DNA of 63,694 bases, the filler included, from Thraustochytrium aureum (Eukaryota): NCBI GenBank assembly GCA_012862495.1. It is 7 parts of 5 records of this genome, joined end to end, with 100 filler letters (N's around TTAATTAATTAA, not from the genome) between each part and the next. Parts side by side here need not be neighbours in the genome. Positions count along the whole stretch, not along the records: positions 29,108 to 53,632 come from BLSG01000156.1; 6 more parts are not named here. One strand, given 5' to 3'. A model generated the notes under the pieces. It made no database searches. It was not told where the DNA came from and saw nothing but the letters and a program-made list of their open reading frames with translations. Position 1 is the first letter of the stretch; the number at the start of each line of letters is the position of its first letter. Of the stretch, positions 20,990 to 62,664 are shown piece after piece. Both the position numbers and the translations under genes were made by a program.

Positions 20990-23554
20990 ATGCAGTGGTG
21001 CTTGAAGCCGCTTGCTTTGGCGCTGCTCGCCACGCCCAGCCTTGGCCAGGACTACAACGCCCTTTGTGAACCAACCACGTACTATTCGGGAATCCAGCGT
21101 GCCATCGCCGATGGTTCGCTAAGTATCGCGCAGCTCCACAGTGTCATCTCGAACGGCTTCACGAGCATCTCCTACAGCTCGGGAACGCCAAACACAGTCG
21201 ACGCGTTGGTGTCTCTGGATGCGCTTGACGGCGACCCTACCCGAGTCAGCCTCGTCTACTCCAACTTCAGCGCGGGCATCAACAACACCGAGAACAACTG
21301 GAACCGCGAGCACCTCTGGGCGCGGTCGTTCGGAATCGATACTTCAGGGGCAGACACCTCTGACCTCTTTAACCTGCGCCCATGCGATGTCGACGTGAAC
21401 AACGCACGGGCCAACAAAGCTTTCGGGATGTGCCAGGCCAGCTGCACGTCCCCGGCGTTCTCCATGGACACGCGAGAGTCTGGCCCCGGGACCGCAACCA
21501 ACAGCGCGGTGTGGCAGCCGCAGCCTGCTGAGCGAGGCGATATCGCGCGCGCGATGTTTTACATGGCTGTGCGGTACGACGGCAGCGAGCCGCAGACGTC
21601 GAACCTCCAGCTGAGCAATTGCCCCAACACGGCAAAATCTTTGTTCGGCAAACTTGAGGACCTGCTCCAGTGGCATCTTGACGACCCCGTTGACGCCAAC
21701 GAGATCCGCCGCAACAACCTCATTTGCTCCGAGTGGCAGCACAACCGAAACCCGTTTGTGGACCACCCAAACCTTGTGCAGGCACTCTTCGGGCCAGGAA
21801 ATTACACTGACCCTGGATGCACGGCAGGACCGATCACGCCTCCCGCAGCCCCAGGGCGCGTCGCAATCGTGGGCATCAACACGTCGAACAAGCCCCGCAC
21901 TCGTATCGCTTTCCTAGCCCTGGAAAACTTCCCCCCAAACGTCCCCGCATTCACTGTGACTGACGACGATTGGACAGGAACAGAGCTCAAGTCGAATGAG
22001 GGTGCGGTGTTTTTCACGCCTGGACCAGAAGGGATCAAGCGCGGCGAGGTCGTTGTGTGGGACAGGGGCAACAGTGCGGGCTGGACAACAGTCACCGGGG
22101 CGACATTGTTCGACCTAAAAGCTTCCAGTGAGACCCTCCTCGTCATGAACGGAGAGTGGAGCCAGAGCGATGAATCGCCGCCAGAGTTCTTGTTCGCGTT
22201 CAAGTATGGCTCGGATTCCTTCGGTGCGGCAGAGCTCCCCTCGGAACTCTCGATCGGGGTGAGCGCTGTCGCCGTTGGGTACTCAAAAATGAATCTCCGC
22301 TTCAACGCCACTGGCAAGATAGCCGGGACGAAAGACGAGGTGCTGGCGCTTGTCTCCAATCCGGCCAACTATGAGGCCTCGAGCGAAGAGTTTGACTTCT
22401 CCACGCTCGAGTTTGCCGTCGGGCCCACATCAAGCCCGACGAATGCACCGACGACGGCAGTGCCGACCACCACCCTGAGCTGGTTGCTCAACAAGGACGA
22501 GTCTAGTGAGCCTGCTGTGGCAGGAAAAGTCGTCAAGTCGTTTACGCATGCGGCCCTTGCCTGCAGCCTCTGCGCAATCGCCTGCGCTGCGCTTCTCGTT
22601 CGCCTAAAGCTGACGCATCCAGTGATAGGCGCTGCTCAACCTCTCTTCTGCGCGACGGTGCTATTCGGTGCCCTGTTGAGTACGCTCTCGATTGTGTTCG
22701 TCACACTTGACGACACCTCTGGGGAGGGCAATCGAGCGGGCCCTGCTGGTGGCAACTCCATAGCGGACTCTGCCTGTGTGGCCTCAGTTTGGTTTTTCGG
22801 GCTCGGTTTCATGCTCATGTACGGTGCACTTATCGTCAAGATGGCCAGGATCCGCGCTCTCTTTAGCCTGCGCTACCGCATGACGGAGAAGGACCGCCGC
22901 CGCCAGTCCACAAGGCACAACCTGCACCTCCTCGCCGCCATCGTCGGTGTCGAGATTGTACTACTGGCCTCGTTCACGGCTGCGAGCCCGCTAAAGTACC
23001 AGCGCGACATCCTGTACGACGAGGACCTTGAGGTCTACCGGCTTGGGCCTGGGTTTTGCACATCGGAGCACGCCAACGCGTTTGCCGCCAGCATTGGGGC
23101 CTACCACCTTGTTGTGCTCCTGTACGGCTTTTTCATTGCCATCAAGACGAGCAAACTTCACAGCGCTTTTAGCGAAGGCAAACACATCCGGTTTGCCATG
23201 TTCAACGGGCTGCAATTCTCTATCCTCGTCATTCCCGTGCTCTACGTGACCACCGACCCTGGCAGCGCCATGCTCGTTCGCGGCGGCGCCATCGCCATTC
23301 ACGACATTGCCGTTGTCACCTTCATCTTTCTGCCAAAGGCCTATATGATCTACGTTGGCGTCGACTCGAAAGACGGCGAGGGCGGCGAGGTTATCGAGCA
23401 TGCCATTGAGCGAAAGAAAGGGGCCATCGGGACCTCCCAAGTTGCCTCCTCTGGCCTTTCCAAGAGCAGCGGCAACGATGACTATTTTTGCTCAACTTGG
23501 GTCCCCCCACAATCGGCGAAGCCTCAGGACACGGAGCATGGTCACGAGCTTTGA
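20990..23554 (+). CDS. Endonuclease I (Bsn/EndA-type) ectodomain fused to class C GPCR 7TM domain, paralog 2 (intact, 854 aa)
   Basis: One uninterrupted ORF: signal peptide, nuclease (~21290-21790), lamin-tail-like domain (~21850-22380), PTSSPTNAPTT stalk, seven hydrophobic helices with GABA-B/class C motifs (~22540-23345) and a Ser-rich cytosolic tail. Confidence 0.92.
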   Translation: MQWCLKPLALALLATPSLGQDYNALCEPTTYYSGIQRAIADGSLSIAQLHSVISNGFTSISYSSGTPNTVDALVSLDALDGDPTRVSLVYSNFSAGINNTENNWNREHLWARSFGIDTSGADTSDLFNLRPCDVDVNNARANKAFGMCQASCTSPAFSMDTRESGPGTATNSAVWQPQPAERGDIARAMFYMAVRYDGSEPQTSNLQLSNCPNTAKSLFGKLEDLLQWHLDDPVDANEIRRNNLICSEWQHNRNPFVDHPNLVQALFGPGNYTDPGCTAGPITPPAAPGRVAIVGINTSNKPRTRIAFLALENFPPNVPAFTVTDDDWTGTELKSNEGAVFFTPGPEGIKRGEVVVWDRGNSAGWTTVTGATLFDLKASSETLLVMNGEWSQSDESPPEFLFAFKYGSDSFGAAELPSELSIGVSAVAVGYSKMNLRFNATGKIAGTKDEVLALVSNPANYEASSEEFDFSTLEFAVGPTSSPTNAPTTAVPTTTLSWLLNKDESSEPAVAGKVVKSFTHAALACSLCAIACAALLVRLKLTHPVIGAAQPLFCATVLFGALLSTLSIVFVTLDDTSGEGNRAGPAGGNSIADSACVASVWFFGLGFMLMYGALIVKMARIRALFSLRYRMTEKDRRRQSTRHNLHLLAAIVGVEIVLLASFTAASPLKYQRDILYDEDLEVYRLGPGFCTSEHANAFAASIGAYHLVVLLYGFFIAIKTSKLHSAFSEGKHIRFAMFNGLQFSILVIPVLYVTTDPGSAMLVRGGAIAIHDIAVVTFIFLPKAYMIYVGVDSKDGEGGEVIEHAIERKKGAIGTSQVASSGLSKSSGNDDYFCSTWVPPQSAKPQDTEHGHEL

Positions 23555-24543: not shown

Positions 24544-27042
24544 CTAGTTGACATAGTTGGCCGGGAAGAGGCCCCGCGCCCCCGATCGCTCGACGGTGCC
24601 GCGCCACCAGCCGCTGGGATCGCAAGCCTGGACGGCGATGCGGTCGCCACGGGAAAATGACACCTCGGTGGCGCCCTTGGCCTGATAGTCGGCGACGGCC
24701 TCGACGACGCGCGCTCCAGAGCTGAAGGCTGGGGAGGCCAGCACAGTGGGGCTCGTGGCACGCCTGCTCGGCAGAGCCTTGGCGAGGCGCTCGCGGCGGT
24801 CCTTGTTGGAGACGGCGAAAAGGCCGGCTGCGAGGCACACGGCGCCGACCACGCCGAAGGCGACGAGGCCGCTGCTGGCGCCCCCAGCCATACTGGCGCC
24901 TCCGGGGTCGACGCTGTCGCCTGCGGCGCTCGAGGTCAGGTCAGTCAGCAAGTTGGTGCCGCCGGGCACGGGCGCAGGCGGCAAGCCAGTGTCCACCTTG
25001 GCGCCGTCGGGCACGACCTCGAGAGTGAACTTTTGCTGCCGGTTGGAAAAGTTCTCGTTGCGGGTGCTCATGGCCATGTAGACGCCCGTCTTGGCGTTGA
25101 CCTTGAGGATCCCGGCGTCAAAGTAAGGAACGGGCTGGCCGGAGAGCTTCATGCAATTGTAGTGCGTCTCCTCGCGCTGCGCTCGGTTGGTAAACGCGTC
25201 TTCGAGCTGCGTAAAGTTCCAGCACTCGGGGCCCTCGATGTCCTGGTCCAGGAAGGCAAGGCGCCGCCAGACCTCGTCGTTCGCGTTGGAAAACATGTTG
25301 TACGCGGCCATGTCGAGAGCCGGAATGTTGTCGCCTGGTGCCGCGAGTTGGACAAAGTTCGAGCGGTCCGCCTTGGTCTGGCGCGCGCGCGAGTTGGACG
25401 CGTACGGACCGCCCTCGGCGTCGTTGCCGTTGCGGTTCGGGTTGTAGTCGCTGCCGGTCCACTGCAGGTGGACGCAGTCGTCAATCTCCGAGACGAGGTG
25501 CGAGGGAGTAAAGTCGTATTCCACGGCGGGGTAGGCCTGGACAATGTTGCCGCGCTTGCCCTTGACGCCCACGTTGTATATCTTGCCACAGCGGGCCGCA
25601 GCGGCGGGCTTGGGGCGCACCTCAAATACGTAGGAGCGGTCCTGGAACGTGCGCGCGTACTGGTCGGTGTTGACAGCAAAGTGGAGCCGCGTCTTGGCCA
25701 GGTCAGAGCCGGCGCCGGTGAGCAAAAGGTAGCCCTCCTCCTCGTTCTCGTCGTTGTCCTTCAGCGGGCTGTTGCGGCCGTTGAGGGCCGAGTCGCCCTT
25801 TACGGAGACGCTGTCATAGTCGGTGCTGCTTATGTTGTACCGCATGCGCAGCACACACCGCTGGGGCTTGGTGACCTCGGGCAGTGTCCACTGGTACCGG
25901 TTGGACGCGGCGGCTGGGCCGGCGGCGTTGCCGAGGTGGTTGGCGCGCGTAAAGGCGCCCTCGATGCAGTCAGGCGCGGCCACGCCGTGGGCCGGATCTT
26001 GGCACCACGTGTACCCCTTGCTCGTGCAGGCTGCCTGGTTGTTGGGCTGGGCGCCGTTGCCGCCACAGCCTCCCTTGCAGTCGCAGCGGCCACGGGGCTT
26101 GACGTTTTGCGACTCGGCTTGGAACGCCGCGCACTTGGCCGCGTGGTTGGTGATGATGGCAACGTCCTTCCAGGGCGAGTGGTGCCAGTATGGGTAGTAG
26201 GCCGCCTCCTCGGCGCACTCGAGGCCGTAGCGCTGCGCGTTGGGGTTTTGCCGTGTGTACCGCGCGTCATTGCCGTTGACGTCTTGGTCGGCTACCCAGA
26301 GCCCCTTGTTGCGCTCCCGGTTGGCGCACTGCCGGTAGTAGGCGAGCGACTCGTGCCGGCCGTAGCGGTAGTCGTCCTGCTCGTTGCCGTTGTCCGAGAT
26401 CGTCTTGGTGGCCTCAACGTTGAGCTGGGTGTCACCGTCAACGACGCGGACTGGCGTCCCATCCCGCAGAGTGCAGGTGGCGCGGGACTGCCCGTTCTGG
26501 TCCTTGCCGCTCGCCGCAAAGGGTGACGCGCACGTCGCGCGGTTGTTCGCGTTGACGTTGCTGTCGCAATCGTCGTCGAGCGTATCTTCGCAGGCGTATT
26601 GGATGATAATGTCGCTGATGATCTCGTTGTTGGCGCCCATGCCGTGCTGGGACGTCCACTCGATCGCCAGCTCGGACCCGCTGAAATAGTACATGGGCGG
26701 CGTATTGACGGCAGCCGGGTTAGCCAGCGTCCCGTCCCGCTTCGCCATGTTTTTGTTGGCTCCGTTGTTCTGGCCCGTGCACTGCGCGAACGCGGCGGCA
26801 TCGTCCACGTATTTGTAGCAGTCGAAAGGCCACGCGCGTGGCGCGCTGTACCCGCCGTTGTCGTTGTTCTGCGAGTCGAACAACCGGTTGGCGTTGCGCC
26901 GCTCTTTGTTGTTGTCGCTTCGCGCGTTGCGGTTGTTGCTTCCGCGGGGGGCGTGCATGTAGACGTCTGCTTCGGCCGACCCGCTCAGGTTGGCGGCGAC
27001 CATCACCGCAATGGCCACGGCTGCAGTGCGCTTGAGAATCAT
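24544..27042 (-). CDS. DD3-3-like single-pass membrane protein with C-terminal SH3 domain
   Basis: Signal peptide; DVYMHAPRGSNNR...NANRLFDSQNN, ECAEEAAYYPYWHHSPWKD and GKRGNIVQAYPAVEYDF are DD3-3 family motifs; TM GLVAFGVVGAVCLAAGLFAV; SH3 AVADY...EVSFSRGDRI...GWWRG...GLFPANYV. Confidence 0.85.
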   Translation of the reverse strand: MILKRTAAVAIAVMVAANLSGSAEADVYMHAPRGSNNRNARSDNNKERRNANRLFDSQNNDNGGYSAPRAWPFDCYKYVDDAAAFAQCTGQNNGANKNMAKRDGTLANPAAVNTPPMYYFSGSELAIEWTSQHGMGANNEIISDIIIQYACEDTLDDDCDSNVNANNRATCASPFAASGKDQNGQSRATCTLRDGTPVRVVDGDTQLNVEATKTISDNGNEQDDYRYGRHESLAYYRQCANRERNKGLWVADQDVNGNDARYTRQNPNAQRYGLECAEEAAYYPYWHHSPWKDVAIITNHAAKCAAFQAESQNVKPRGRCDCKGGCGGNGAQPNNQAACTSKGYTWCQDPAHGVAAPDCIEGAFTRANHLGNAAGPAAASNRYQWTLPEVTKPQRCVLRMRYNISSTDYDSVSVKGDSALNGRNSPLKDNDENEEEGYLLLTGAGSDLAKTRLHFAVNTDQYARTFQDRSYVFEVRPKPAAAARCGKIYNVGVKGKRGNIVQAYPAVEYDFTPSHLVSEIDDCVHLQWTGSDYNPNRNGNDAEGGPYASNSRARQTKADRSNFVQLAAPGDNIPALDMAAYNMFSNANDEVWRRLAFLDQDIEGPECWNFTQLEDAFTNRAQREETHYNCMKLSGQPVPYFDAGILKVNAKTGVYMAMSTRNENFSNRQQKFTLEVVPDGAKVDTGLPPAPVPGGTNLLTDLTSSAAGDSVDPGGASMAGGASSGLVAFGVVGAVCLAAGLFAVSNKDRRERLAKALPSRRATSPTVLASPAFSSGARVVEAVADYQAKGATEVSFSRGDRIAVQACDPSGWWRGTVERSGARGLFPANYVN

Positions 27043-29051
27043 CGTTGCGTTGTTCTATTGCTTGCTTTTGCTTTGGTTTCGGGTTTGCTTGCCCAAACCC
27101 AACGCGCGTTTGCTTGCTTGCCCAAACCCAACTGCCATAGGCCGGCCAATGCCGCTGCCAGCGAGGTACACGGAGCCATCTGTTTTCGTTTTGCGTTTCC
27201 CGCGCTCTGCCAAACGGCAGATGGACTGACGCCGCTTCGGGTGACCTCTGCTGGAGCAACGCACATATAGTACGTGGAGAAGGCCGGCAGTACACGCGCG
27301 CCGGCTCTGCGCCTGCGCGGAGCCAGGAGCCATGGGCCAGAAACCGGCCTCGCGGCACGTGTTGGCTGCCAATCAGCTCACTCCAGAGCTAGAGTGGCGC
27401 GAGCTCTCTCTACTCGAGACCTACCTGTGGCGGAATGACGCTCGCTCGTTTGGCGTTGGTGTCGCGCAGCAGGCGCGCTCAACACCCTGCCAAGAGACAA
27501 GATGGCAGACTGGCGCCTGCTCGTTCGGCGTTGGTGTCGTTGTGACGCGTGCGAGGGTTCTGCAAGGGGGGCGTGCCGTACAGTAGATAGNNNNNNNNNN
27601 NNNNNNNNNNNNNNNNNNNNNNNNNNNNNNNNNNNNNNNNNNNNNNNNNNNNNNNNNNNNNNNNNNNNNNNNNNNNNNNNNNNNNNNNNNNNNNNNNNNN
27701 NNNNNNNNNNNNNNNNNNNNNNNNNNNNNNNNNNNNNNNNNNNNNNNNNNNNNNNNNNNNNNNNNNNNNNNNNNNNNNNNNNNNNNNNNNNNNNNNNNNN
27801 NNNNNNNNNNNNNNNNNNNNNNNNNNNNNNNNNNNNNNNNNNNNNNNNNNNNNNNNNNNNNNNNNNNNNNNNNNNNNNNNNNNNNNNNNNNNNNNNNNNN
27901 NNNNNNNNNNNNNNNNNNNNNNNNNNNNNNNNNNNNNNNNNNNNNNNNNNNNNNNNNNNNNNNNNNNNNNNNNNNNNNNNNNNNNNNNNNNNNNNNNNNN
28001 NNNNNNNNNNNNNNNNNNNNNNNNNNNNNNNNNNNNNNNNNNNNNNNNNNNNNNNNNNNNNNNNNNNNNNNNNNNNNNNNNNNNNNNNNNNNNNNNNNCG
28101 GGGATGAGGCGTTCTGGACCACAGCTTTGCAAAGCGAGGGGAGCCACTCAGCGACGTCGTGGCGGTCGTGGTTGGCCTGATCATGTATCGGTAGGTACCG
28201 TGAAAAAAGAAGAAGCTGCAGCGCGCTGCCGGCCAGCCGCCTGACGACGGAAAGTTCACGCGCAAGCTCACAGCCGACAAGTACGCGTACCGGCGGCGAT
28301 CTGCGACTTGCTGTTCGCCGAGTAGTGAGCAAGAAGCGCGCAAACGGGTCGTTGCCTGACGACGGCTGCGGTGGAAGCAAGATCCAAAAAGGCGTTCTAC
28401 ATGAGAGCACGTTCGCGGGGCTGCCACATGCTCTTTGCAGATCTGAAAAGGGAGGTGGGGATCGATTTTGACCGCGCCGTCGCGACAGCAGCAGCATTGG
28501 CCGGCGTTGAAGCTCTATGGCTTCTCCTTGACGATGCGCAAAACACTTGCGGCAAGGACTATCCATGGGTTGGTGGGTGACTACATAGGCTACTCTACGA
28601 GTACTCAGGACGCTTAAAAACGGGAGGTGGGACCTCCAAAAAGGTGAAAGAAACGGGACTGCCGATTTCATGATTAGCTAAGGTCAGGCAGCACGAACAG
28701 GGACGTCTCGCTGCGCCACGGAGGCGGCTCGCTGGAGCGGACCCGGACCAACCCCATGAAGGCCTGAAGCCAAGAGCGGATCAAAGGCACCTTGATGACA
28801 AAGACTTGACGGCTGACAGACATCCTTGCGGCGTTGAAACGAGACGTCCGTGACAAACGTCCTGTTCTGATGATGATCACCTGCAATTGCAATCAAGTAG
28901 TTGGCTTGCAAACCAAGTGCTGACTTGAGTGCTCACTCCACACGCGATCATCGCTCTTGCTCGGGAACGCAGGCGCCGTCTTGCCACTTGCACACGCCGG
29001 ACGTCCANNNNNNNNNNNNNNNNNNNNNNNNNNNNNNNNNNNNNNNNNNNN

Positions 29052-29063
29052 TTAATTAATTAA
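29052..29063. other. Artificial contig linker TTAATTAATTAA
   Basis: Embedded in N runs. Confidence 0.97.
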
Positions 29064-29840
29064 NNNNNNNNNNNNNNNNNNNNNNNNNNNNNNNNNNNNN
29101 NNNNNNNATTCGATCACGAATTCGATCACGAACTAGGTACTTCGCGCGCCACATTCGGGGTCTGGAGCAAGAGGGCATGCATGCCACCGGGCGAAATCTA
29201 AAATTTTCTCTGAAGGCGCTAGAACTTGAAATTCAATACAAAGATAGGGTGTTTTCTTGATCCTCAAATGTCCTGCGACCGTCCGCCAGCTGCCGCGCCT
29301 GGAGTGGGGCTCGTTCGTGATGCCATGTCCGGCGCTGGACGGGTCGGTGGCGAGCGCTCTCGCCGAGGCTCCCCAACAGGCCCGCACGCCCGCCGCAGCC
29401 CGAGTTCATTCAGAGGCAGGCAGCACACGAGTCCTCCACGTCGCAAGACAGGGAGTGTCGAGGACAAACCTCGAAGAAGCACTCGCCCGTTCGGCCTGGG
29501 TGCAGGGGCAGAGCGCCCACTCGCCCGCGAACTTCACGTTCAGGTGCAGGGCCTCCGGCGAGCTCTGCAGCGCACACCGGCGTACCGCCTGAAGCGCGCG
29601 CCTCTAGGAGTATTATACATTTATGTGCGAAAAAAAGCGCGAGCTATCGCGCAGTGTTGCAAGCCGATCTCGTCCCATCCAAAGAGACAGCGAGCGAGCG
29701 GGCGTGGCACTGTTGGCAGACTCGGTTTGGCTGCCTGCCACGAGCAAGAAGCCAACGCACGTGGACCAGCGAGGAGCGCCGCCTCAGAGCCCGGTGCAGG
29801 CGGATACGATTGGGCGGCGGGCAAGCTCGCCGAGGCCATC

Positions 29841-32456
29841 ATGTCCGTGCCAAGGTCGCGCTCGAGAGGCGAGAGCGCGGAGGCCGGGCCCATGATCGGC
29901 ACCAAGAAGCCTCTGAGCGCGGCCGAGAAGGCCGCCTTGTACGAAGGGACCGACGGGCCGTGCCAGAACAGGAGAAACAGCGCGCTGGTCGGAGCTGCGC
30001 TTGCCCTCCTTTTAATGGCCGCGCTGGCGATGGCCAGCTCAAACTCCGCCGCCGTCGACGGCAGCGCCCTGGGACTGCGAGGCCCTGCGAACGCCAACGC
30101 CAGCGTCTCGCCGGGGACCGGCCGCGGCAAGGGCGCAAGCGCTGCCCCCTCCTCCTGGGGCAGCTCGCTGGCAAACTGGATGGGCGCGTACGAGCCAGGA
30201 GCCACCGGGGCGAGCGCCGACTGGGGCGAGAAAATCGACCTGGACGATGAGGAAACAGTAATTGCGGCCAGAGAAAAAGACGGGGCCCCCGAAGACTGGG
30301 CGCAGTTCATCAAGACCAAGCTCGAAGACCCGAACAAAAAGCGCGACGTTTGCGTCGTCGGCGCCGGCATCACTGGCGCCGTCCTGGCCGAGCGGTTCGC
30401 TAACGTGCTGGGCAAGGACGTTCTCGTCATCGATAAGCGCGCCCACATTGGGGGCAACTGCTACGACTTTGAGGAGCAAGAGACGGGACTCCGCGTCAAC
30501 AAGTACGGCGCCCATGTTCTGCACACGAGCAGCCCGCGGGTCTGGACCTATCTCAACCTGCACGAAAATGCGCCGCGCTGGGCGAACTGGCACGGATCCA
30601 TCGCCGTGCAGACCGAGTCGGGCGAGCCGGTTCGCTACCCGATCGGCCCCGAGTGGGTGCAAAAGTTTTCCGATCAGGCAGAGGTCAAGACCGTCGAGGA
30701 GCTACGCGCGTATCTGAGCACCGTGCAGGTGCCGTGCAACGCGAACGAGGGCTGCGAGACGGTCGCCGACTACGTGCGCAGTCTCGTTGGCGAGGACCTG
30801 TACCAGCAACACTTTTTTCCTTTCTTTGTCAAGCAGCTCGGCGCAGAGCCCCAGGAGACCGCCGCCGGCTCGGACCAGCTAAACCTGCACTCGGTCATCG
30901 AGAACGAGCGCCCCTTTGTCGAAAAGCACATTGTGGTGCCCGCCAAGGGCTGGGTGCGCTGGTTCGCGGCCGTGCTCGACAATCCCAAGATCGAGGTCGT
31001 GGTCGGCGTCGATTTTGCGGACTACAAAGCCGAGCTGCTCGCAGCCTGCGAGCGCGTCATCTACACTGGCCCTATCGACTCGTACTTTTCCGACGCCGGT
31101 CTCGACCCGCTCCCGTACCGCAGCGCGCTCTTCCGCGCCCGCGTCCAGCGCAGCGCGGACGCGGCCAAACAGCAGAAGAGCGCGATCCTCGAAAACGCAA
31201 ACTGGGAGGTCGACTACTTGCGCTCTGTTGACTATGACCTCTTCGACGTGGCCACCGAGCGTACGGCAGCTACGACGGCAGAGGAGCGCGAAGGGGGGCA
31301 CACGGTCGTCGTGCAGGAGATCCCCGTCCCGCTCCGCCCTGTCGCAAAAGGCGAGTCGGCCTCGACCACGCCAGGGGCGATCCCGTTCTGGGCTGTGCCC
31401 ACCCAAGCCAACCTCCAGCTCTTTGCAAAGTACCAAGAGCTCGCTGCGCGCGAGGCCCCCAAGGTGGTTTTTGCCGGTGGACTGGCCACTTATCGCAACC
31501 TGGATCTCGGCGAGAGCGTCGAGAGCGCCCTTAGCACCTTTTTCGAACTCGCTGGCCGCCCCCCGGTTCCCGACATGCCCGGCATGTTCGAAGTCCAGCG
31601 CCTCGACTGGATGCACATCCCAAAGACGGGCACCTCGTTTATCAACACAATGGTGCTGTACAAATGCGACGAACGCATCGCTCAGTCCCCCGACCCCACG
31701 CGCGAGCACAAGAGCATATACAACCGCGTTGCGCACTCTCGCCCAGTCCCCGCTTGCGCGGAGGGCATGAAGCACGGCCACCACCCCCTCCTCGCGGGCC
31801 AGAACGGGTTCGAGGAAGGGCAAACCGCCCTGAGCCAGGTCGCCACCATGATCCGCGACCCCATCGTGCGAACAGCCTCGGGCTTTACGCATAGCTACCA
31901 CGACTGTTCGAAAATGGCCAAGGGCCGCCTCAAGACGCGCCCCAAAGACGTTTGCGCTGTGCTCGAAAACCCCGACGCCCCAGCCGAGCTGCGCGCCTCC
32001 ATGGAGAAGCTCGTCCTCGAGTACGCTCACTGTGTGCAAGGCTGCCAAGCGCGCATGATCACGGGCGAGAAATGCGCTCACGACAAGCCTTACGGTGAGG
32101 CTGACGCCGAAACGCTCAAGCGCAAGACCGAAGAGGCCATCGCCAAGCTCGAAAGCTTTGCCTACGTCGGCTTGACGGACCGCTGGAAGCAGAGCCTCTG
32201 CGCTTTTTCGCGCCGCTTTCCCCGCCCCAGCGGCAACTCGTATGCCTTCGACTTGCTCAGCGCCAACACGCGGCCCACGCGCCACGCAACGTGCAACCCT
32301 GTCGTGCAGGACATTTTGCGCAAGAGTGGCTACACAGACCCGCTTGACGGGCCATTGTTTGAGCGTGGCCGCGTCATTTTTGAGCAATCGCTGGGGCCTT
32401 GCGCGCACACGTTCAAGGCCCCTGAGGCCGCGCCGGCGCAAAGCGCAGCGCCCTGA
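29841..32456 (+). CDS. Type II membrane protein: UDP-galactopyranose mutase (Glf)-like domain fused to carbohydrate sulfotransferase domain
   Basis: TM ALVGAALALLLMAALAMA. Glf motifs VVGAGITG, IDKRAHIGGNCYD, VNKYGAHVLHT and YTGPIDSYF..L.YRS. Sulfotransferase PAPS motifs HIPKTGTS and MIRDPIVRTAS, plus FAYVGLTD. Confidence 0.88.
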   Translation: MSVPRSRSRGESAEAGPMIGTKKPLSAAEKAALYEGTDGPCQNRRNSALVGAALALLLMAALAMASSNSAAVDGSALGLRGPANANASVSPGTGRGKGASAAPSSWGSSLANWMGAYEPGATGASADWGEKIDLDDEETVIAAREKDGAPEDWAQFIKTKLEDPNKKRDVCVVGAGITGAVLAERFANVLGKDVLVIDKRAHIGGNCYDFEEQETGLRVNKYGAHVLHTSSPRVWTYLNLHENAPRWANWHGSIAVQTESGEPVRYPIGPEWVQKFSDQAEVKTVEELRAYLSTVQVPCNANEGCETVADYVRSLVGEDLYQQHFFPFFVKQLGAEPQETAAGSDQLNLHSVIENERPFVEKHIVVPAKGWVRWFAAVLDNPKIEVVVGVDFADYKAELLAACERVIYTGPIDSYFSDAGLDPLPYRSALFRARVQRSADAAKQQKSAILENANWEVDYLRSVDYDLFDVATERTAATTAEEREGGHTVVVQEIPVPLRPVAKGESASTTPGAIPFWAVPTQANLQLFAKYQELAAREAPKVVFAGGLATYRNLDLGESVESALSTFFELAGRPPVPDMPGMFEVQRLDWMHIPKTGTSFINTMVLYKCDERIAQSPDPTREHKSIYNRVAHSRPVPACAEGMKHGHHPLLAGQNGFEEGQTALSQVATMIRDPIVRTASGFTHSYHDCSKMAKGRLKTRPKDVCAVLENPDAPAELRASMEKLVLEYAHCVQGCQARMITGEKCAHDKPYGEADAETLKRKTEEAIAKLESFAYVGLTDRWKQSLCAFSRRFPRPSGNSYAFDLLSANTRPTRHATCNPVVQDILRKSGYTDPLDGPLFERGRVIFEQSLGPCAHTFKAPEAAPAQSAAP

Positions 32457-32897
32457 TCCCACTCGACGGGTACTGGCTGCAGAGGCCTTTGCGAGTGGGA
32501 AAACCGGTCGGACTCGACGTCGAGCATGTGCATTGGCCGACGCGACGCGCTCGGCCTCGCGCGACAGCGCCGCAGGCAAGGAAGAAACCAAGTAACAAGT
32601 AAGAAAAAAGTGACCTACGGCTGCCTTCGTTTCTTTGGGGGCGAGAGAAAAGAGCAGATCCTCCCTGCCGAACGCCCGCTCTCGCTCTGGGGCGCGCGCG
32701 ACATCCCGTTCCAGAAACTCCAGGAGCCAAGCGGCGTTCGCACTTACTCCGACAGCGCAGTCGCCTGAGGCCTCAGGCGACAGGACCAATCGATGCCACT
32801 GCGCCGAGCCCCGCCCGCTCGCGATAGCACGCGCGACCCCGCAGCTCCACCGCTTGCTCCGGACGCGCTCTACTCTAGAGCTAGAGCCAGGTCGAAG

Positions 32898-52509: not shown

Positions 52510-53632
52510 TCAGCGCTTGGCCCACGGAAGACCCTGCATTATGTTGGAGAGGGTTCCCCGCTTGTTGGTCATCCGCACAGAGAGTAGAGTGCGACCGATC
52601 TTGAGGTGCATCGGGTTGTCGTTGACGAGCTCCATGGGGCCCTTGACCTGCACGAAGGTGCCCCCAAGAGAGGCGCAGTCGTTGAGCTCAAACTGGCGCG
52701 TCTCGCGGTTGAAGGTGATCTTGGCGTGCACGCTGCCCACCGAGCGATCCGAAAGGCGCACATCGGCGTCAGAAGCGCGGCCGATAACCGCCTCGGCCTT
52801 GTCCGCGAAGCTGAGACGGAACCTGCGTGTGCCAACCCAGGACTGGCCTCGGCGGTGGCGCACCACCTTGAGCTCGATGTTGGGTGGCGGGGAGCTAAAG
52901 TGCTGCGGGAGCGGCCCGTTGCAGATGGAGCAATGCCCAGACCCGCTGCTCTTGATCCAGGTGAGCAGGCAATTAAGGTGCACATAGCGCGAGCTGCCCG
53001 AGCACTTTCCGCACGGGTTTTGGATGAGCGGGTTGGCCTTGCCCTGGGCAGTGCCTTTCGAGTCGCTGTCTTCGTCGCCTGTTGCGGCGTCCACCCCGCC
53101 CCAGCAAATGTAGCACATCGCGTCGTCCTCCTCCTCCGCGTCGCCCTCGTCGCTCGTGACGTCGTGCTCCTCGCCCGAGAACTCGGCGGCGGCAGCGGCT
53201 TCGTCCTCGACGTGGAGCTCGACGTTGTCCTCTTCCAAGTTGGAGGCGCCTTCGATGGAGCCTTCTGACTCAGCCTCGTTGTTGCTGGACGACCCGGAGC
53301 CCGCCTTGCCGTCGTGGTCGGTGCGCAGGGCGTTGCGGCTCTGGCCGCCAGTGACTGGATGGTTCGTGGCGGCGGTCTGGGTCGTGGCCGCGTTGGAGAT
53401 GCGGCGCGCGGAGCGGCGGCCCGAGGTGCGGCGGCTCAGGGAGGCGCGCTCGTTGGCGCTGGTGCTAATCTCGACCGCGAAGCGCTCGACAAAGTCGTCG
53501 CTTTCCTTGATGCAGAGGTCGGTGACCTCGAGAGAGACGGAGCCCACCTTGATGACGGTTCCGATCTCGAGGTAGGTCTCGCGCGCGCTCTTCTTGGAGC
53601 CCATGCCCACCATCTGGTACATGCGCGACCTC
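52510..53632 (-). CDS. RING-CH (RINGv) + FHA domain protein, 5' truncated at contig end
   Basis: CYICW...NPLIQNPCGKCSGSSRYVHLNCLLTWI...CSIC (C4HC3); FHA motif IGRASDADVRLSDRSVGSVHAKI...DCASLGGTFV. Confidence 0.9.
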
Positions 53633-53676
53633 NNNNNNNNNNNNNNNNNNNNNNNNNNNNNNNNNNNNNNNNNNNN

Positions 53677-53688
53677 TTAATTAATTAA
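53677..53688. other. Artificial contig linker TTAATTAATTAA
   Basis: Embedded in N runs. Confidence 0.97.
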
Positions 53689-54443
53689 NNNNNNNNNNNN
53701 NNNNNNNNNNNNNNNNNNNNNNNNNNNNNNNNCTTCTGTTGCTTCCTTGCTCCGACCGCCGAAAATGGATACACCCTGGTGCAGCGCGACGTTCATTCCC
53801 GAATATCGGGTGAATAATGAATAGTACGTTGTGGAGATGAGAAATTTTCAGGGAAAAGCCGAGTCTCCATCCTTTTGGCCGTTCTTGCGCTGCTGGGCTT
53901 GTGAGGACCAAAGCCTTGGTGTGCCTGCGTGCGCACGCCTCGTTTTCTGTCACTCCACACACTCTCTGGAAGCGACACAATTCGTCACGAGCAAAACGAT
54001 CCCTGAGGAAGTTTCGCGCTCACTGTGGGGCCCTCCACTCGTCATCGAATTATCAATTGAAGATGCGTTTCGCGTCACTTGGCGTACGCACGCGTCACTA
54101 CCTACCGGTTCGAAAGATGGAGCTCCCTCCATAGGCCAGTCCCACAGGAACCCGGCGGCAACCGAGAGCCTGACGAGCAGCGGCCTTGTGATGCCGAGGC
54201 ACGAAACGCCCGTGACGATAAAGCTCGTGTCGAAATAGTGGCACCACGCAACCTCAAGATTGCTGGGCGGCTGTGCAAGTCGCGAAAGGGGTCGGGCGCG
54301 TTCAAAGACCCCGGGCGCGCCCGACGACCTCGCCCTGCATCAACAACAAAGTACAGACTCTGTCTTTGCAGAGGGTTGCCGGCGGCGGCGGCGGTCAACC
54401 ACTGCTTGCGAAGCGCCAGCTGTCGCAGGCGGAATTCTTCTAC

Positions 54444-56601: not shown

Positions 56602-57874
56602 GCTGCCGCGACCACGTCCACCGCGCGCCAGGCGCCGCCAAACCAAACCCGACCAGGTGAGGATGTCGTACCACTCGAGTACGGCAGGATGCAAGCGCCA
56701 GAGCTCGGGAGACGATAGTCTCCTGCGATGGACGTGCGGGAGGACGACCTCCTGCGGTCGATCAATGCGGCGATCGATCGAGCGAGCGGGCGGGCGAGCG
56801 AGCGAGCGAGCGAGTGCCGCCTCCGCCACCGCGACCTGCACTGCCAGCAGCCGTTCGAGCGCTGGCGCAGTGTAGACAACGACCCGAGCGTGACGAAAAT
56901 GGTCACGTGACGGAGGGACTAATAGTGACGAGAAGGGCCACCGCGACAAAGGCGAGGGTCGCGCTCGTGATGTTGACGAAGACGTGATGAGGCACGAGCG
57001 CTGCCTGCCAGTGGAAAGAGGCTCGCGTTGTGCGGCTCGACGCGGACGCACACTGCCACAATGTCGATGGTTTCGCCGGCAATCTCTGCTGGCGCAAGAG
57101 GTTGCTTGGCGCAAGTTGTTCAAGCTGCTGCAGATCGTCGTCGACGTTGGCGCGGACACTTTGTCGAAGCACATGCTGCGATGCCTGGTCAGGACGAAAA
57201 CTCTGGCACACCGGCGTGGCTATCGTCTTGCTTGCTTACATCGCTCTGCCGTGGTGCGGCATTTTATGTCACAACAGATGCTGTATCTCTATTTTTCAAA
57301 GGCAGAAACGGGACGCACCTGCGCCTGGCCGGAAGCCGCGCGCTCAAATGCAGAGCAGCTCTGGCCTCTGCGACTCTGAAAGCACAGGCGACAACAGCAT
57401 TGGCCGCAACGAGGAAGCCAGCGCCGCAGAAATTGCCAACTGCGGCCCCTCCAGCACAGCGCAGAACTTTGTTGATTCCGTTCCCGTCGGCAAGCTTGGA
57501 CGCAACGACTGCGTGCGTTCGTGTTTGGGGCCGCTCGCCGGGCGCTAAGCCTCCTCCAGTCACAGCAGCTACAGCTCGTCGTGCTGTGGAGTTCCAGTGC
57601 CGTCTTCGTCTCGGGCGGCAAAGAGCTCGGCGACGCGCCGTGCGAGCCCGGCTGCGCCGTTGGCCCAGCGCCAAACTTGGACCTGGGCATCGGACCCCGT
57701 CCCGTTGCCCTGCAGCAACACACGAGCTGGCAAACTGTCCAGTTCGACGTCCGCGCCCGGGTCAAAGCCGGCCTCGCGCAGGATCTCATGCCGCGATGTG
57801 TACTTGCGGTTCGACTTGGTCCCATGCCACNNNNNNNNNNNNNNNNNNNNNNNNNNNNNNNNNNNNNNNNNNNN

Positions 57875-57886
57875 TTAATTAATTAA
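57875..57886. other. Artificial contig linker TTAATTAATTAA
   Basis: Embedded in N runs. Confidence 0.97.
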
Positions 57887-58857
57887 NNNNNNNNNNNNNN
57901 NNNNNNNNNNNNNNNNNNNNNNNNNNNNNNGACGGTGAGCAAGAGGTGAGCAGGGAGGGAGAGTAGGTAGGAGGACTCAGAGTGGAGCTGCTCGAGGCGC
58001 TTGAGGTGCTTGATGAGTCGTTTGCTCTTGGAGCGGCCGGTGGTGTTCTGGTGCTCACTTTCGAGCGCCTCACTGCTCGCTGCCCTGGTCGCTCGGGGCG
58101 AAAGCCCCCTCGAGAGCGAGCTGGCTGGCTGGCTGCTGGCTGGCTTGCTTGTTGCGAGCGCCCGTGGATGGAGCGAGGATGGGGAGGAGGAGGCCGCCTC
58201 TCAAAAGAGCTCCGAGCCCGGGTGCCCTGAGCCACGTCACGTGGCTCATGAAGCCTGTTGACTCATGCGTAGATGGGCGTGATTCAGCTCCGTGGCGGAG
58301 AGTGGGCGGGTGGGTGAGTGCGGGGAGAGGACGAGCGAATAGCGTGGTACTTACTCGCATTCGAGGCGTCGCCTCGCACTCGGGGGCGGAAAAGCGGGCG
58401 GCCTGTTGCCCGGCAGTGAGTGGCTCGTGAGAGGGGGAGCGAGCGACTGCGAGTGCACCTGGACCTCACAGCTGCCCATCATACCTTCCTCCGAGGCGGC
58501 CACAACCGAAAAAAACGTGCTGCCGAGAGGAGCGCTAGCAAGCATTACTACGGTTTTTGGAGCAAATGAAAAGAGTGTGCGTTCGTTCGTTCGGAACAGT
58601 GTGTGTTCGAGCATCGGAAAAAGTTTGGGCCTGCGCCTGGGACACGCGAGTTGGCTGGCGTGTTGGCCAAGCAAGTCCTGGTCAACTGTCCGGCAGGCGC
58701 CGCGAGCGGCAAGCCAACGTTCGAATCAATCCAGCCAAGCTGCTTTTTGCTCGAACAGAGTCCCATACCAACGCATGCTACGAAAGTTACGAGTTCCTTG
58801 CCTTGCCTTGTCCAGGTTGTCCTTGTATGTTCATCACTGGCAGTCAGCGCCACCCGC

Positions 58858-61092: not shown

Positions 61093-61136
61093 NNNNNNNN
61101 NNNNNNNNNNNNNNNNNNNNNNNNNNNNNNNNNNNN

Positions 61137-61148
61137 TTAATTAATTAA
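61137..61148. other. Artificial contig linker TTAATTAATTAA
   Basis: Embedded in N runs. Confidence 0.97.
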
Positions 61149-61192
61149 NNNNNNNNNNNNNNNNNNNNNNNNNNNNNNNNNNNNNNNNNNNN

Positions 61193-62292: not shown

Positions 62293-62608
62293 AAGGGCAT
62301 CGCTGATTCTTTTTCTTGATCAAAAGTAAATTGTGAAGCCGTCCACAAATCTCCCAACGGGGCGCCTGCAATGCTCTGCGTGGTCGCCTCTCGACGGAAA
62401 AGGCACCGTTCGGCGCGCGCGGGCCCGTGCCCTGTTGCGACGCCCCACACCAAGCAAACAAAGCACCGACGCAACACCAACAACGGAACCGTACCGCCGC
62501 CCGGGCGTCCGTCAACGATGCCCTCTGGGCCACCACGGCCGCCATGGGCGCGCGCGCATGGAATNNNNNNNNNNNNNNNNNNNNNNNNNNNNNNNNNNNN
62601 NNNNNNNN

Positions 62609-62620
62609 TTAATTAATTAA
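62609..62620. other. Artificial contig linker TTAATTAATTAA
   Basis: Embedded in N runs. Confidence 0.97.
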
Positions 62621-62664
62621 NNNNNNNNNNNNNNNNNNNNNNNNNNNNNNNNNNNNNNNNNNNN

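Follow-up and report, generated by a model that had tools for sequence, protein, structure and literature searches.

We analyzed a 63,694-nucleotide stretch of DNA (hereafter, the window) joined from 7 parts of 5 records of the genome assembly GCA_012862495.1, which is assigned to Thraustochytrium aureum. On its plus strand, an uninterrupted frame at positions 29841-32456, with zero stops and zero N, encodes an 871-amino acid protein (P0001). In this protein, an N-terminal tail, a hydrophobic helix, and a stem are followed by a domain with the fold of uridine diphosphate (UDP)-galactopyranose mutase (UGM; Glf in bacteria) and then by a sulfotransferase domain. Two homologs, P0002 and P0003 (819 and 851 amino acids), also contain GLF, begin with a tail, a hydrophobic segment, and a stem as P0001 does, and have their domains in the same order; the three proteins are referred to below as the fusions. 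The features of the gene are as follows, with residues numbered in P0001 unless E. coli numbering is indicated (FAD, flavin adenine dinucleotide).

29841-32456, plus strand: single-exon open reading frame (ORF) of P0001, type II-like, a putative pseudo-UGM plus sulfotransferase (from the frame and two full-length homologs)
29841-29978, plus strand: N-terminal tail, residues 1-46, presumably cytosolic, 9% three-way identity
29979-30035, plus strand: hydrophobic segment, residues 47-65, likely a signal-anchor, in all three fusions (hydropathy scan)
30036-30320, plus strand: low-complexity stem, residues 66-160, 11% three-way identity
30333-31550, plus strand: bacterial-type Glf/UGM-fold domain, residues 165-570, with FAD contacts mostly kept and the UDP-sugar site largely replaced
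30360-30377, plus strand: GxGxxG FAD-binding loop, G174-G179, intact in all three fusions
30735-30755, plus strand: Cys299/Cys305 pair, a possible luminal disulfide
30849-30908, plus strand: mobile loop of the essential Arg170 (E. coli numbering), with no Arg or Lys in any of the three fusions
31221-31223, plus strand: Arg461, equivalent to E. coli Arg278, the sole kept diphosphate contact of five
31551-31595, plus strand: conserved junction AGRPxVPDMPGxF, 15 residues, 67% three-way identity
31596-32405, plus strand: HS2ST/HS6ST-like sulfotransferase domain, residues 586-855
31614-31637, plus strand: 5'-phosphosulfate-binding loop HIPKTGTS with Lys595, residues 592-599
31779-31781, plus strand: His647, candidate catalytic base
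31854-31880, plus strand: 3'-phosphate-binding motif RDPIVRTAS with Arg672, Arg677, and Ser680, residues 672-680

The ORF begins about 730 bases into the segment that follows an N-linker-N block at 29008-29107, and an alternative in-frame ATG is present upstream at 29268. The GC content at third codon positions (GC3) of the stretch starting from this ATG is 0.62, against 0.81 for the N-terminal part of P0001, 0.82 for its UGM part, 0.80 for its sulfotransferase part, and 0.73-0.88 for neighbouring genes. Because the extension has this lower GC3 and both homologs begin near the position equivalent to 29841, the start at 29841 is favoured over that at 29268, and we took 29841 or Met18 as the start codon. 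Contigs from three runs of one study, which are not recorded as RNA and are RNA only by a guess, cover 29877-32552, and the domain junction is crossed by single contigs (29946-31669, 30032-31669, and 31297-31669) with no joints and no frame-breaking indels. In a control stretch, contigs were spread unevenly and fell mainly on ORFs, and uncovered parts carry no meaning. Two separate genes or an intron artefact are thus ruled out by the continuous frame together with the contigs that span the junction. Of the 21 single-base differences between the ORF and contigs from related runs, 13 are synonymous and 8 are missense; none introduces a stop or a frameshift. An Rfam scan gave zero matches.

The mutase-like domain is clearly of the bacterial type. 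P0001 matched the Pfam family GLF (PF03275) with an E value of 5.1e-25 (88.8 bits against a cut-off of 26.3) and NAD_binding_8 with 1.6e-17, and a PDB sequence search returned 13 UGM sequences (E 6e-45 to 1e-29). The predicted fold of the domain also matches bacterial UGMs in Foldseek, with a template-modelling (TM) score by target of 0.91 to 3HDQ (E 7e-30). The match to TIGR00031, over residues 169-567, reached 163.8 bits, about half of the 303.75-bit cut-off, and the three fusions score 89-119 bits for GLF, compared with 162-245 for the 10 other homologs scanned. On the flavin side, 10 of the 12 FAD contacts are either retained or conservatively substituted, the exceptions being the loss of Arg340 and the replacement of Met349 by Leu. 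Arg340 (E. coli numbering), which contacts the FAD pyrophosphate, is invariant in 24 of 24 intact rows and is Gly, Lys, or a gap in the fusions, in a variable region where two of the three have a one-residue deletion. His225, His228, Arg461, and Glu493, corresponding to His56, His59, Arg278, and Glu298 of E. coli, are all present in the three fusions. The fusion domain is predicted to bind FAD, which would have a structural role.

The C-terminal domain probably represents an active carbohydrate sulfotransferase of the secretory pathway, although direct profile searches gave little. P0001 had no Pfam sulfotransferase match at E ≤ 0.1, P0003 likewise had none above cut-off, P0002 matched Sulfotransfer_2 at 3.4e-4 (21.3 bits, below the cut-off of 22), and the C-terminal domain of P0001 had no sequence match in the PDB. 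Pfam sulfotransferase profiles are described as biased to glycosaminoglycan enzymes (PMC11625862). An exhaustive search with the domain recovered 838 relatives at E ≤ 0.001; among the relatives scanned (66 of 149 new ones listed), Sulfotransfer_2 (PF03567) was found at E ≤ 0.01 in 31 and above the curated cut-off in 15. A family profile of 91 rows matched HS6ST at 1e-15 over nearly the whole domain and HS2ST at 2e-4. The AlphaFold model of the isolated domain had a predicted local distance difference test score (pLDDT) of 91, while in the two-domain model this half was poor, with blocks mostly at pLDDT 30-85. Foldseek linked the isolated model to HS6ST/HS2ST weakly (E 1e-3 to 8e-3, TM 0.44). 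VIA-align placed it on the same enzymes with Z 13.1-13.2 (root-mean-square deviation 3.5-4.6, 198-222 aligned residues), the next family being the cytosolic SULTs at Z 7.9 or less. In the Atlas, clusters of haptophytes and diatoms annotated with Sulfotransfer_2 scored 0.92-0.94, with the family on 13-36% of their members.

The residues expected of such an enzyme are conserved. Lys595, Arg672, Arg677, and Ser680 are present in all three fusions and in 83/85, 91/91, 91/91, and 89/91 rows of the family alignment, respectively. The column of His647 is invariant in the fusions and holds His in 87 of the 89 rows with a residue, and by profile comparison it aligns with the second His of the HS2ST motif YHGH, which we take to be His142. 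The H142A mutation of HS2ST is reported to abolish activity, which indicates the role of this histidine (PMC6094399), and the lysine of the 5'-phosphosulfate-binding loop, the serine of the 3'-phosphate-binding motif, and the catalytic histidine are given as the residues that define these sulfotransferases (PMC11625862). Because the relatives, the family profile, and the model all support it, the sulfotransferase assignment stands despite the missing Pfam match. In the original prediction, a single ORF with a short tail, one hydrophobic helix, and a stem had been proposed to lead into a prokaryote-type Glf/UGM domain and a sulfotransferase carrying HIPKTGTS and RDPIVRTAS. The 871-amino acid frame and the segment at residues 47-65 agree with this layout, the GLF match and the fold with the mutase-type domain, and both motifs occur as described. 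The sulfotransferase itself was upheld through its relatives, the HS6ST/HS2ST profile, and the model, while the direct hidden Markov model match, whose absence had been named as a reason to give up the assignment, was not found.

Members of the same sulfotransferase family occur elsewhere in other architectures (P0029-P0031, P0037, P0050, P0061, and P0162). They include tandem repeats, with up to 7 stretches in 2022 amino acids, fusions to PAN or to an FkbM methyltransferase plus a TupA ATP-grasp domain, and a fusion with a galactosyltransferase and a second sulfotransferase type.

In contrast to the flavin side, the sugar-nucleotide site of the mutase-like domain is largely gone. We mapped 20 active-site positions (Table 2 of PMC3322874) via E. 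coli Glf and 11 substrate contacts (Table 3 of PMC3624792) onto the fusions and their relatives, with P0024 (truncated, 12/20) excluded from the intact set. Each fusion keeps 6 of the 20 active-site residues, compared with 15-18 in 23 full-length relatives. Although 9 of the 11 substrate-contact positions are invariant in all 24 intact rows, the three fusions retain only 2, 3, and 2 of the UDP-galactose contacts, whereas they match 59, 58, and 57 of 90 conserved columns elsewhere (Fisher p 0.006, 0.024, and 0.007; the three rows are kin and the tests are not independent). In E. coli numbering, Trp156, Arg170, Tyr181, and Asn268 are lost in all three fusions, and His/Asn80, Thr152, Tyr311, and Tyr346 are replaced with Gly, Phe, Trp, and Asn, respectively. 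The mobile loop contains no Arg or Lys in the fusions against 3-4 in intact enzymes, with the register of Arg170 in P0001 being ambiguous between Gln346 and Leu347. The mobile-loop mutant R174A of K. pneumoniae UGM is reported to be inactive (PMC3322874); of the two essential arginines of that enzyme, R280 corresponds to the kept Arg461, and the equivalent of R174 is gone. Four of the five diphosphate contacts are lost.

A working pyranose-furanose mutase for UDP-galactose or another nucleoside diphosphate (NDP)-sugar, fused to the sulfotransferase, would account for the complete Glf fold and the retained Arg278 equivalent, and Glf-type enzymes specific for a cytidine diphosphate-sugar (PMC12369002) and for an N-acetylgalactosamine (GalNAc)-sugar (4MO2) are known. 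NDP-sugar mutases need a diphosphate clamp, however, and here four of its five contacts have disappeared together with the mobile-loop arginine. The C. jejuni UDP-GalNAc mutase 4MO2, the sole specificity-shifted sequence compared, retains the residues that the fusions lost, and the low TIGR00031 and GLF scores point the same way. Because the substrate contacts and the mobile-loop arginine are lost, we consider an active NDP-sugar mutase very unlikely. The original prediction had offered a bifunctional enzyme interconverting UDP-galactopyranose and UDP-galactofuranose (UDP-Galf) or, alternatively, a scaffold. With 6 of 20 active-site residues and no mobile-loop arginine the former is not supported, and the latter term is the more apt.

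P0002 and P0003, which align with P0001 over their full length at 52% and 47% identity, were 2 of 4435 candidates in the search with the C-terminal domain. A profile word search for further fusions gave only P0002 and one 372-amino acid Glf, and, as P0003 was missed, this search was insensitive; a search with the UGM region recovered neither P0002 nor P0003. In a metagenome scan, 136 pattern matches reduced to one locus, an intact Glf resembling fusions with DUF3431, and narrow pattern scans of viral and prokaryotic genomes found no further fusion among 54 and 266 matches, respectively. Among the fusions, three-way identity is 38% for the UGM-like domain and 40% for the sulfotransferase domain; the stem has 11%, and the junction reaches 67%. 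A Glf tree built from 28 domains groups the fusions together (support 100/100). Their stem branch measures 1.73 changes per site and their tips 0.46-0.67, against a median tip of 0.44; in the sulfotransferase tree (41 rows, a quick tree) the branch of the fusion group is 0.44. These lengths point to a burst of change in the UGM-like domain on the ancestral branch that was followed by ordinary constraint.

Such conservation bears on the idea that the UGM-like domain is a decaying passenger serving as an oversized stem of an ordinary type II sulfotransferase. Active-site loss and the variable Arg340 region, with its deletion in two of the three fusions, would be expected of decay, and the family was rare in the searches made. 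After the ancestral burst, however, the domain is conserved like the catalytic domain (38% against 40%, with the stem at 11%) in proteins that are about 50% identical, so that it does not appear to be decaying, and none of the 21 single-base variants in the related runs is a stop or a frameshift. We give decay hardly any credence.

The same pattern raises the main rival, a new flavin chemistry in which the Glf fold acts on a substrate other than an NDP-sugar, such as a glycan-bound sugar or a redox partner like the flavin of an active luminal UGM, in a reaction coupled to sulfation. The FAD motifs and His225, His228, Arg461, and Glu493 are kept in all fusions, a long stem branch followed by ordinary tips is the pattern of a functional shift, 14 replacements are common to the three proteins, and the junction is strongly conserved. 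On the other hand, these 14 are drawn from 31 positions lost in all three, and the share with one common new residue (45%) is close to the background (165/397, 42%). The new residues do not stand out in conservation, so nothing points to a new catalytic pocket under tight constraint. In addition, the equivalent of Arg340 is Gly, Lys, or a gap, and no substrate is evident. We regard this alternative as somewhat unlikely.

The UGM-like domain is most closely related to intact Glf proteins found in eukaryote and metagenome data sets, among which P0006, from the stramenopile Pinguiococcus pyrenoidosus, is the only close intact homolog with a named organism. The Glf tree places the fusions as sister to P0004-P0007 (support 96/91); P0028, P0026, P0027, and P0021 were excluded from a second tree. 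This link is supported because the Cys299/Cys305 pair and the AGRP..DMPG.F tail are shared. All 13 rows of that eukaryotic clade carry the pair and none of the 15 other rows does, and the junction AGRP..DMPG.F is exactly the tail of the intact anchored UGMs P0005 and P0007. An N-terminal hydrophobic segment was found in 12 of the 15 intact Glf relatives tested, two of which may be signal peptides.

The anchored intact UGMs (P0005-P0007, P0009-P0013, P0015, P0017, P0019, and P0022), which come from eukaryote transcriptomes and metagenomes, keep 16-17 of the 20 active-site residues and are possibly secretory-pathway mutases. Intact Glf is also repeatedly fused to other domains linked to glycans (P0008, P0012, P0018, P0019, P0020, P0021, P0023, and the frame L002:29-1603). 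In three proteins the partner is DUF3431, and L002:29-1603 resembles these three; other partners are a family 90 glycosyltransferase, domains of the NDP-sugar epimerase type, and a region that weakly matches a nucleotide-sugar transferase.

As for the location of the protein, residues 47-65 form the sole hydrophobic segment of P0001 (Kyte-Doolittle 2.32), with two basic residues before it and one after; the anchor was called with a hydropathy scan, not with a topology predictor. We infer that the protein is of type II and that its two domains face the Golgi lumen. A luminal location is in keeping with the stem sequon at N86, matched in the alignment by sequons N82 and N106 in P0002 and P0003, with the Cys299/Cys305 pair, and with the many conserved cysteines of the sulfotransferase domain. 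The nearest stand-alone sulfotransferase relatives likewise have an N-terminal tail, a hydrophobic segment, and a stem (4 of 4 tested). The protein might instead face the cytosol, reside in the endoplasmic reticulum, or be cleaved and secreted, and its acceptor might be a lipid, a protein, or a small molecule. The charge bias around the helix is weak, characterized UGMs are reported as cytosolic (PMC7278926), and Gal-3-O-sulfotransferase is found on 35% of the members in one Atlas cluster set. Against these stand the aligned sequon, the clade-specific cysteine pair, and the cysteine-rich sulfotransferase, and among solved structures the heparan-sulfate enzymes come closest, at Z 13, with the cytosolic SULTs at Z ≤ 7.9. 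A location outside the Golgi lumen seems to us quite improbable.

Taking these results together, we favour a Golgi-luminal glycan O-sulfotransferase, in which the mutase-like domain likely has no mutase chemistry and would serve to dock the enzyme, either on its glycan or on the machinery that builds it; we judge the chance that this explanation is right to be about even. The sulfotransferase of this type II protein would be the working enzyme, transferring sulfate from 3'-phosphoadenosine 5'-phosphosulfate to a sugar hydroxyl by means of Lys595, His647, and Ser680, as in HS2ST and HS6ST. The gene may have arisen when a duplicate of an anchored, active bacterial-type UGM of the P0005/P0007 type was fused to an algal-type sulfotransferase, after which the mutase pocket would have been rapidly remodelled. 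In the resulting pseudo-mutase module, FAD would be structural and the domain would bind or scaffold. The acceptor could be a galactose-containing surface glycan; should the host be a thraustochytrid, this would agree with sulfated wall scales.

Several observations weigh against this explanation, in addition to the missing Pfam match and the weak Foldseek similarity of the sulfotransferase domain. The docking role is a guess, and the kept flavin-side residues could serve new catalysis. Six identical swaps in all three fusions (T152F, Y311W, Y346N, H80G, V173H, and E281D) are what a remodelled site would show. The topology depends on hydropathy and a slight charge bias (+2 against +1). The conservation figures come from three fusion sequences, which makes their statistics weak, and an approximately unbiased test does not reject a position of the fusions outside the wider group (p 0.14). 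A bolder proposal is that a protist lineage runs furanose chemistry in the Golgi lumen with anchored bacterial-type mutases, and that the duplicate studied here turned to a new non-nucleotide reaction coupled to wall-glycan sulfation, for example, ring or redox chemistry at the glycan level or keeping a luminal mutase reduced. We consider this proposal improbable.

With regard to the surroundings of the gene, the neighbours in the window are eukaryotic housekeeping genes by Pfam scan, with coatomer beta adjoining and Sec8 and Vps52 also present. Cluster look-ups with 10 ORFs of the window and with P0001 gave no entry in the collection. Six N blocks (8185-8284, 29008-29107, 53633-53732, 57831-57930, 61093-61192, and 62565-62664), each composed of 44 N, 12 bases, and 44 N (one of them is TTAATTAATTAA), are probably artificial contig linkers, and genes on either side of them need not adjoin. 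At 20990-23554 (plus strand), a secreted-type Endonuclease I (E 1e-32) is fused to a class C G protein-coupled receptor domain, 7tm_3 (E 7e-38), an unusual receptor architecture. The minus strand encodes an 832-amino acid protein at 24544-27042, with a signal-like N-terminus, a large Cys-containing ectodomain without a Pfam match, a single hydrophobic segment late in the chain, and an SH3 domain at the C-terminus, and a protein with RINGv and FHA domains at 52510-53622.

The fusion gene, which could be knocked out, offers a concrete entry point to the synthesis of sulfated galactose-rich surface glycans in marine protists; the walls of thraustochytrids are described as sulfated, galactose-containing, and Golgi-made (PMC11642839). 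It also illustrates an annotation risk, as such fusions would be mislabelled as active UDP-galactopyranose mutases. The anchored intact UGMs, if luminal, depart from the route reported for eukaryotic-type UGM, where the mutase is cytosolic and a transporter carries UDP-Galf into the Golgi (PMC7278926). They would also pose the problem of how a reduction-dependent flavin works in the secretory pathway. The part of a review on microalgal glycosylation that treats putative algal UGMs mentions no anchored forms (PMC7773692), and our search of the open-access literature found no Glf-sulfotransferase fusion, anchored Glf, or Glf-fold pseudoenzyme.

Compared with known systems, the first half of P0001, at about 30% identity, shares with bacterial Glf (E. 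coli 1I8T, C. diphtheriae 5EQF, and D. radiodurans 3HDQ) the whole three-domain fold (TM by target 0.87-0.91), the FAD motifs, and His56, His59, Arg278, and Glu298. It differs from bacterial Glf in having a membrane anchor, a stem, and a C-terminal sulfotransferase and in the loss of Arg170, Trp156, Thr152, Tyr181, Asn268, Tyr311, Tyr346, and Arg340. With the uncharacterized anchored UGMs P0005-P0007 and P0009-P0011 it shares the hydrophobic segment, the Cys299/Cys305 pair, and 36-41% identity, but those proteins keep 16-17 of the 20 active-site residues and are without a sulfotransferase. The eukaryotic-type UGM of Aspergillus fumigatus and trypanosomatids has a related flavoprotein fold and is far more distant (TM 0.55-0.57, 12-14% identity). 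The second half resembles HS6ST/HS2ST (5T03/5T05 and 3F5F/4NDZ) in the H-x-x-K-T-G loop, the R-D-P-x-x-R-x-x-S motif, the base His, the C-terminal FVG and RP motifs, and Z 13, whereas its identity to them is 16-19%, its cysteine pattern is different, and it belongs to a large unnamed family found in haptophyte and diatom clusters. Both halves are thus of known kinds, and what is new here is a gutted yet conserved mutase fold joined to a sulfotransferase.

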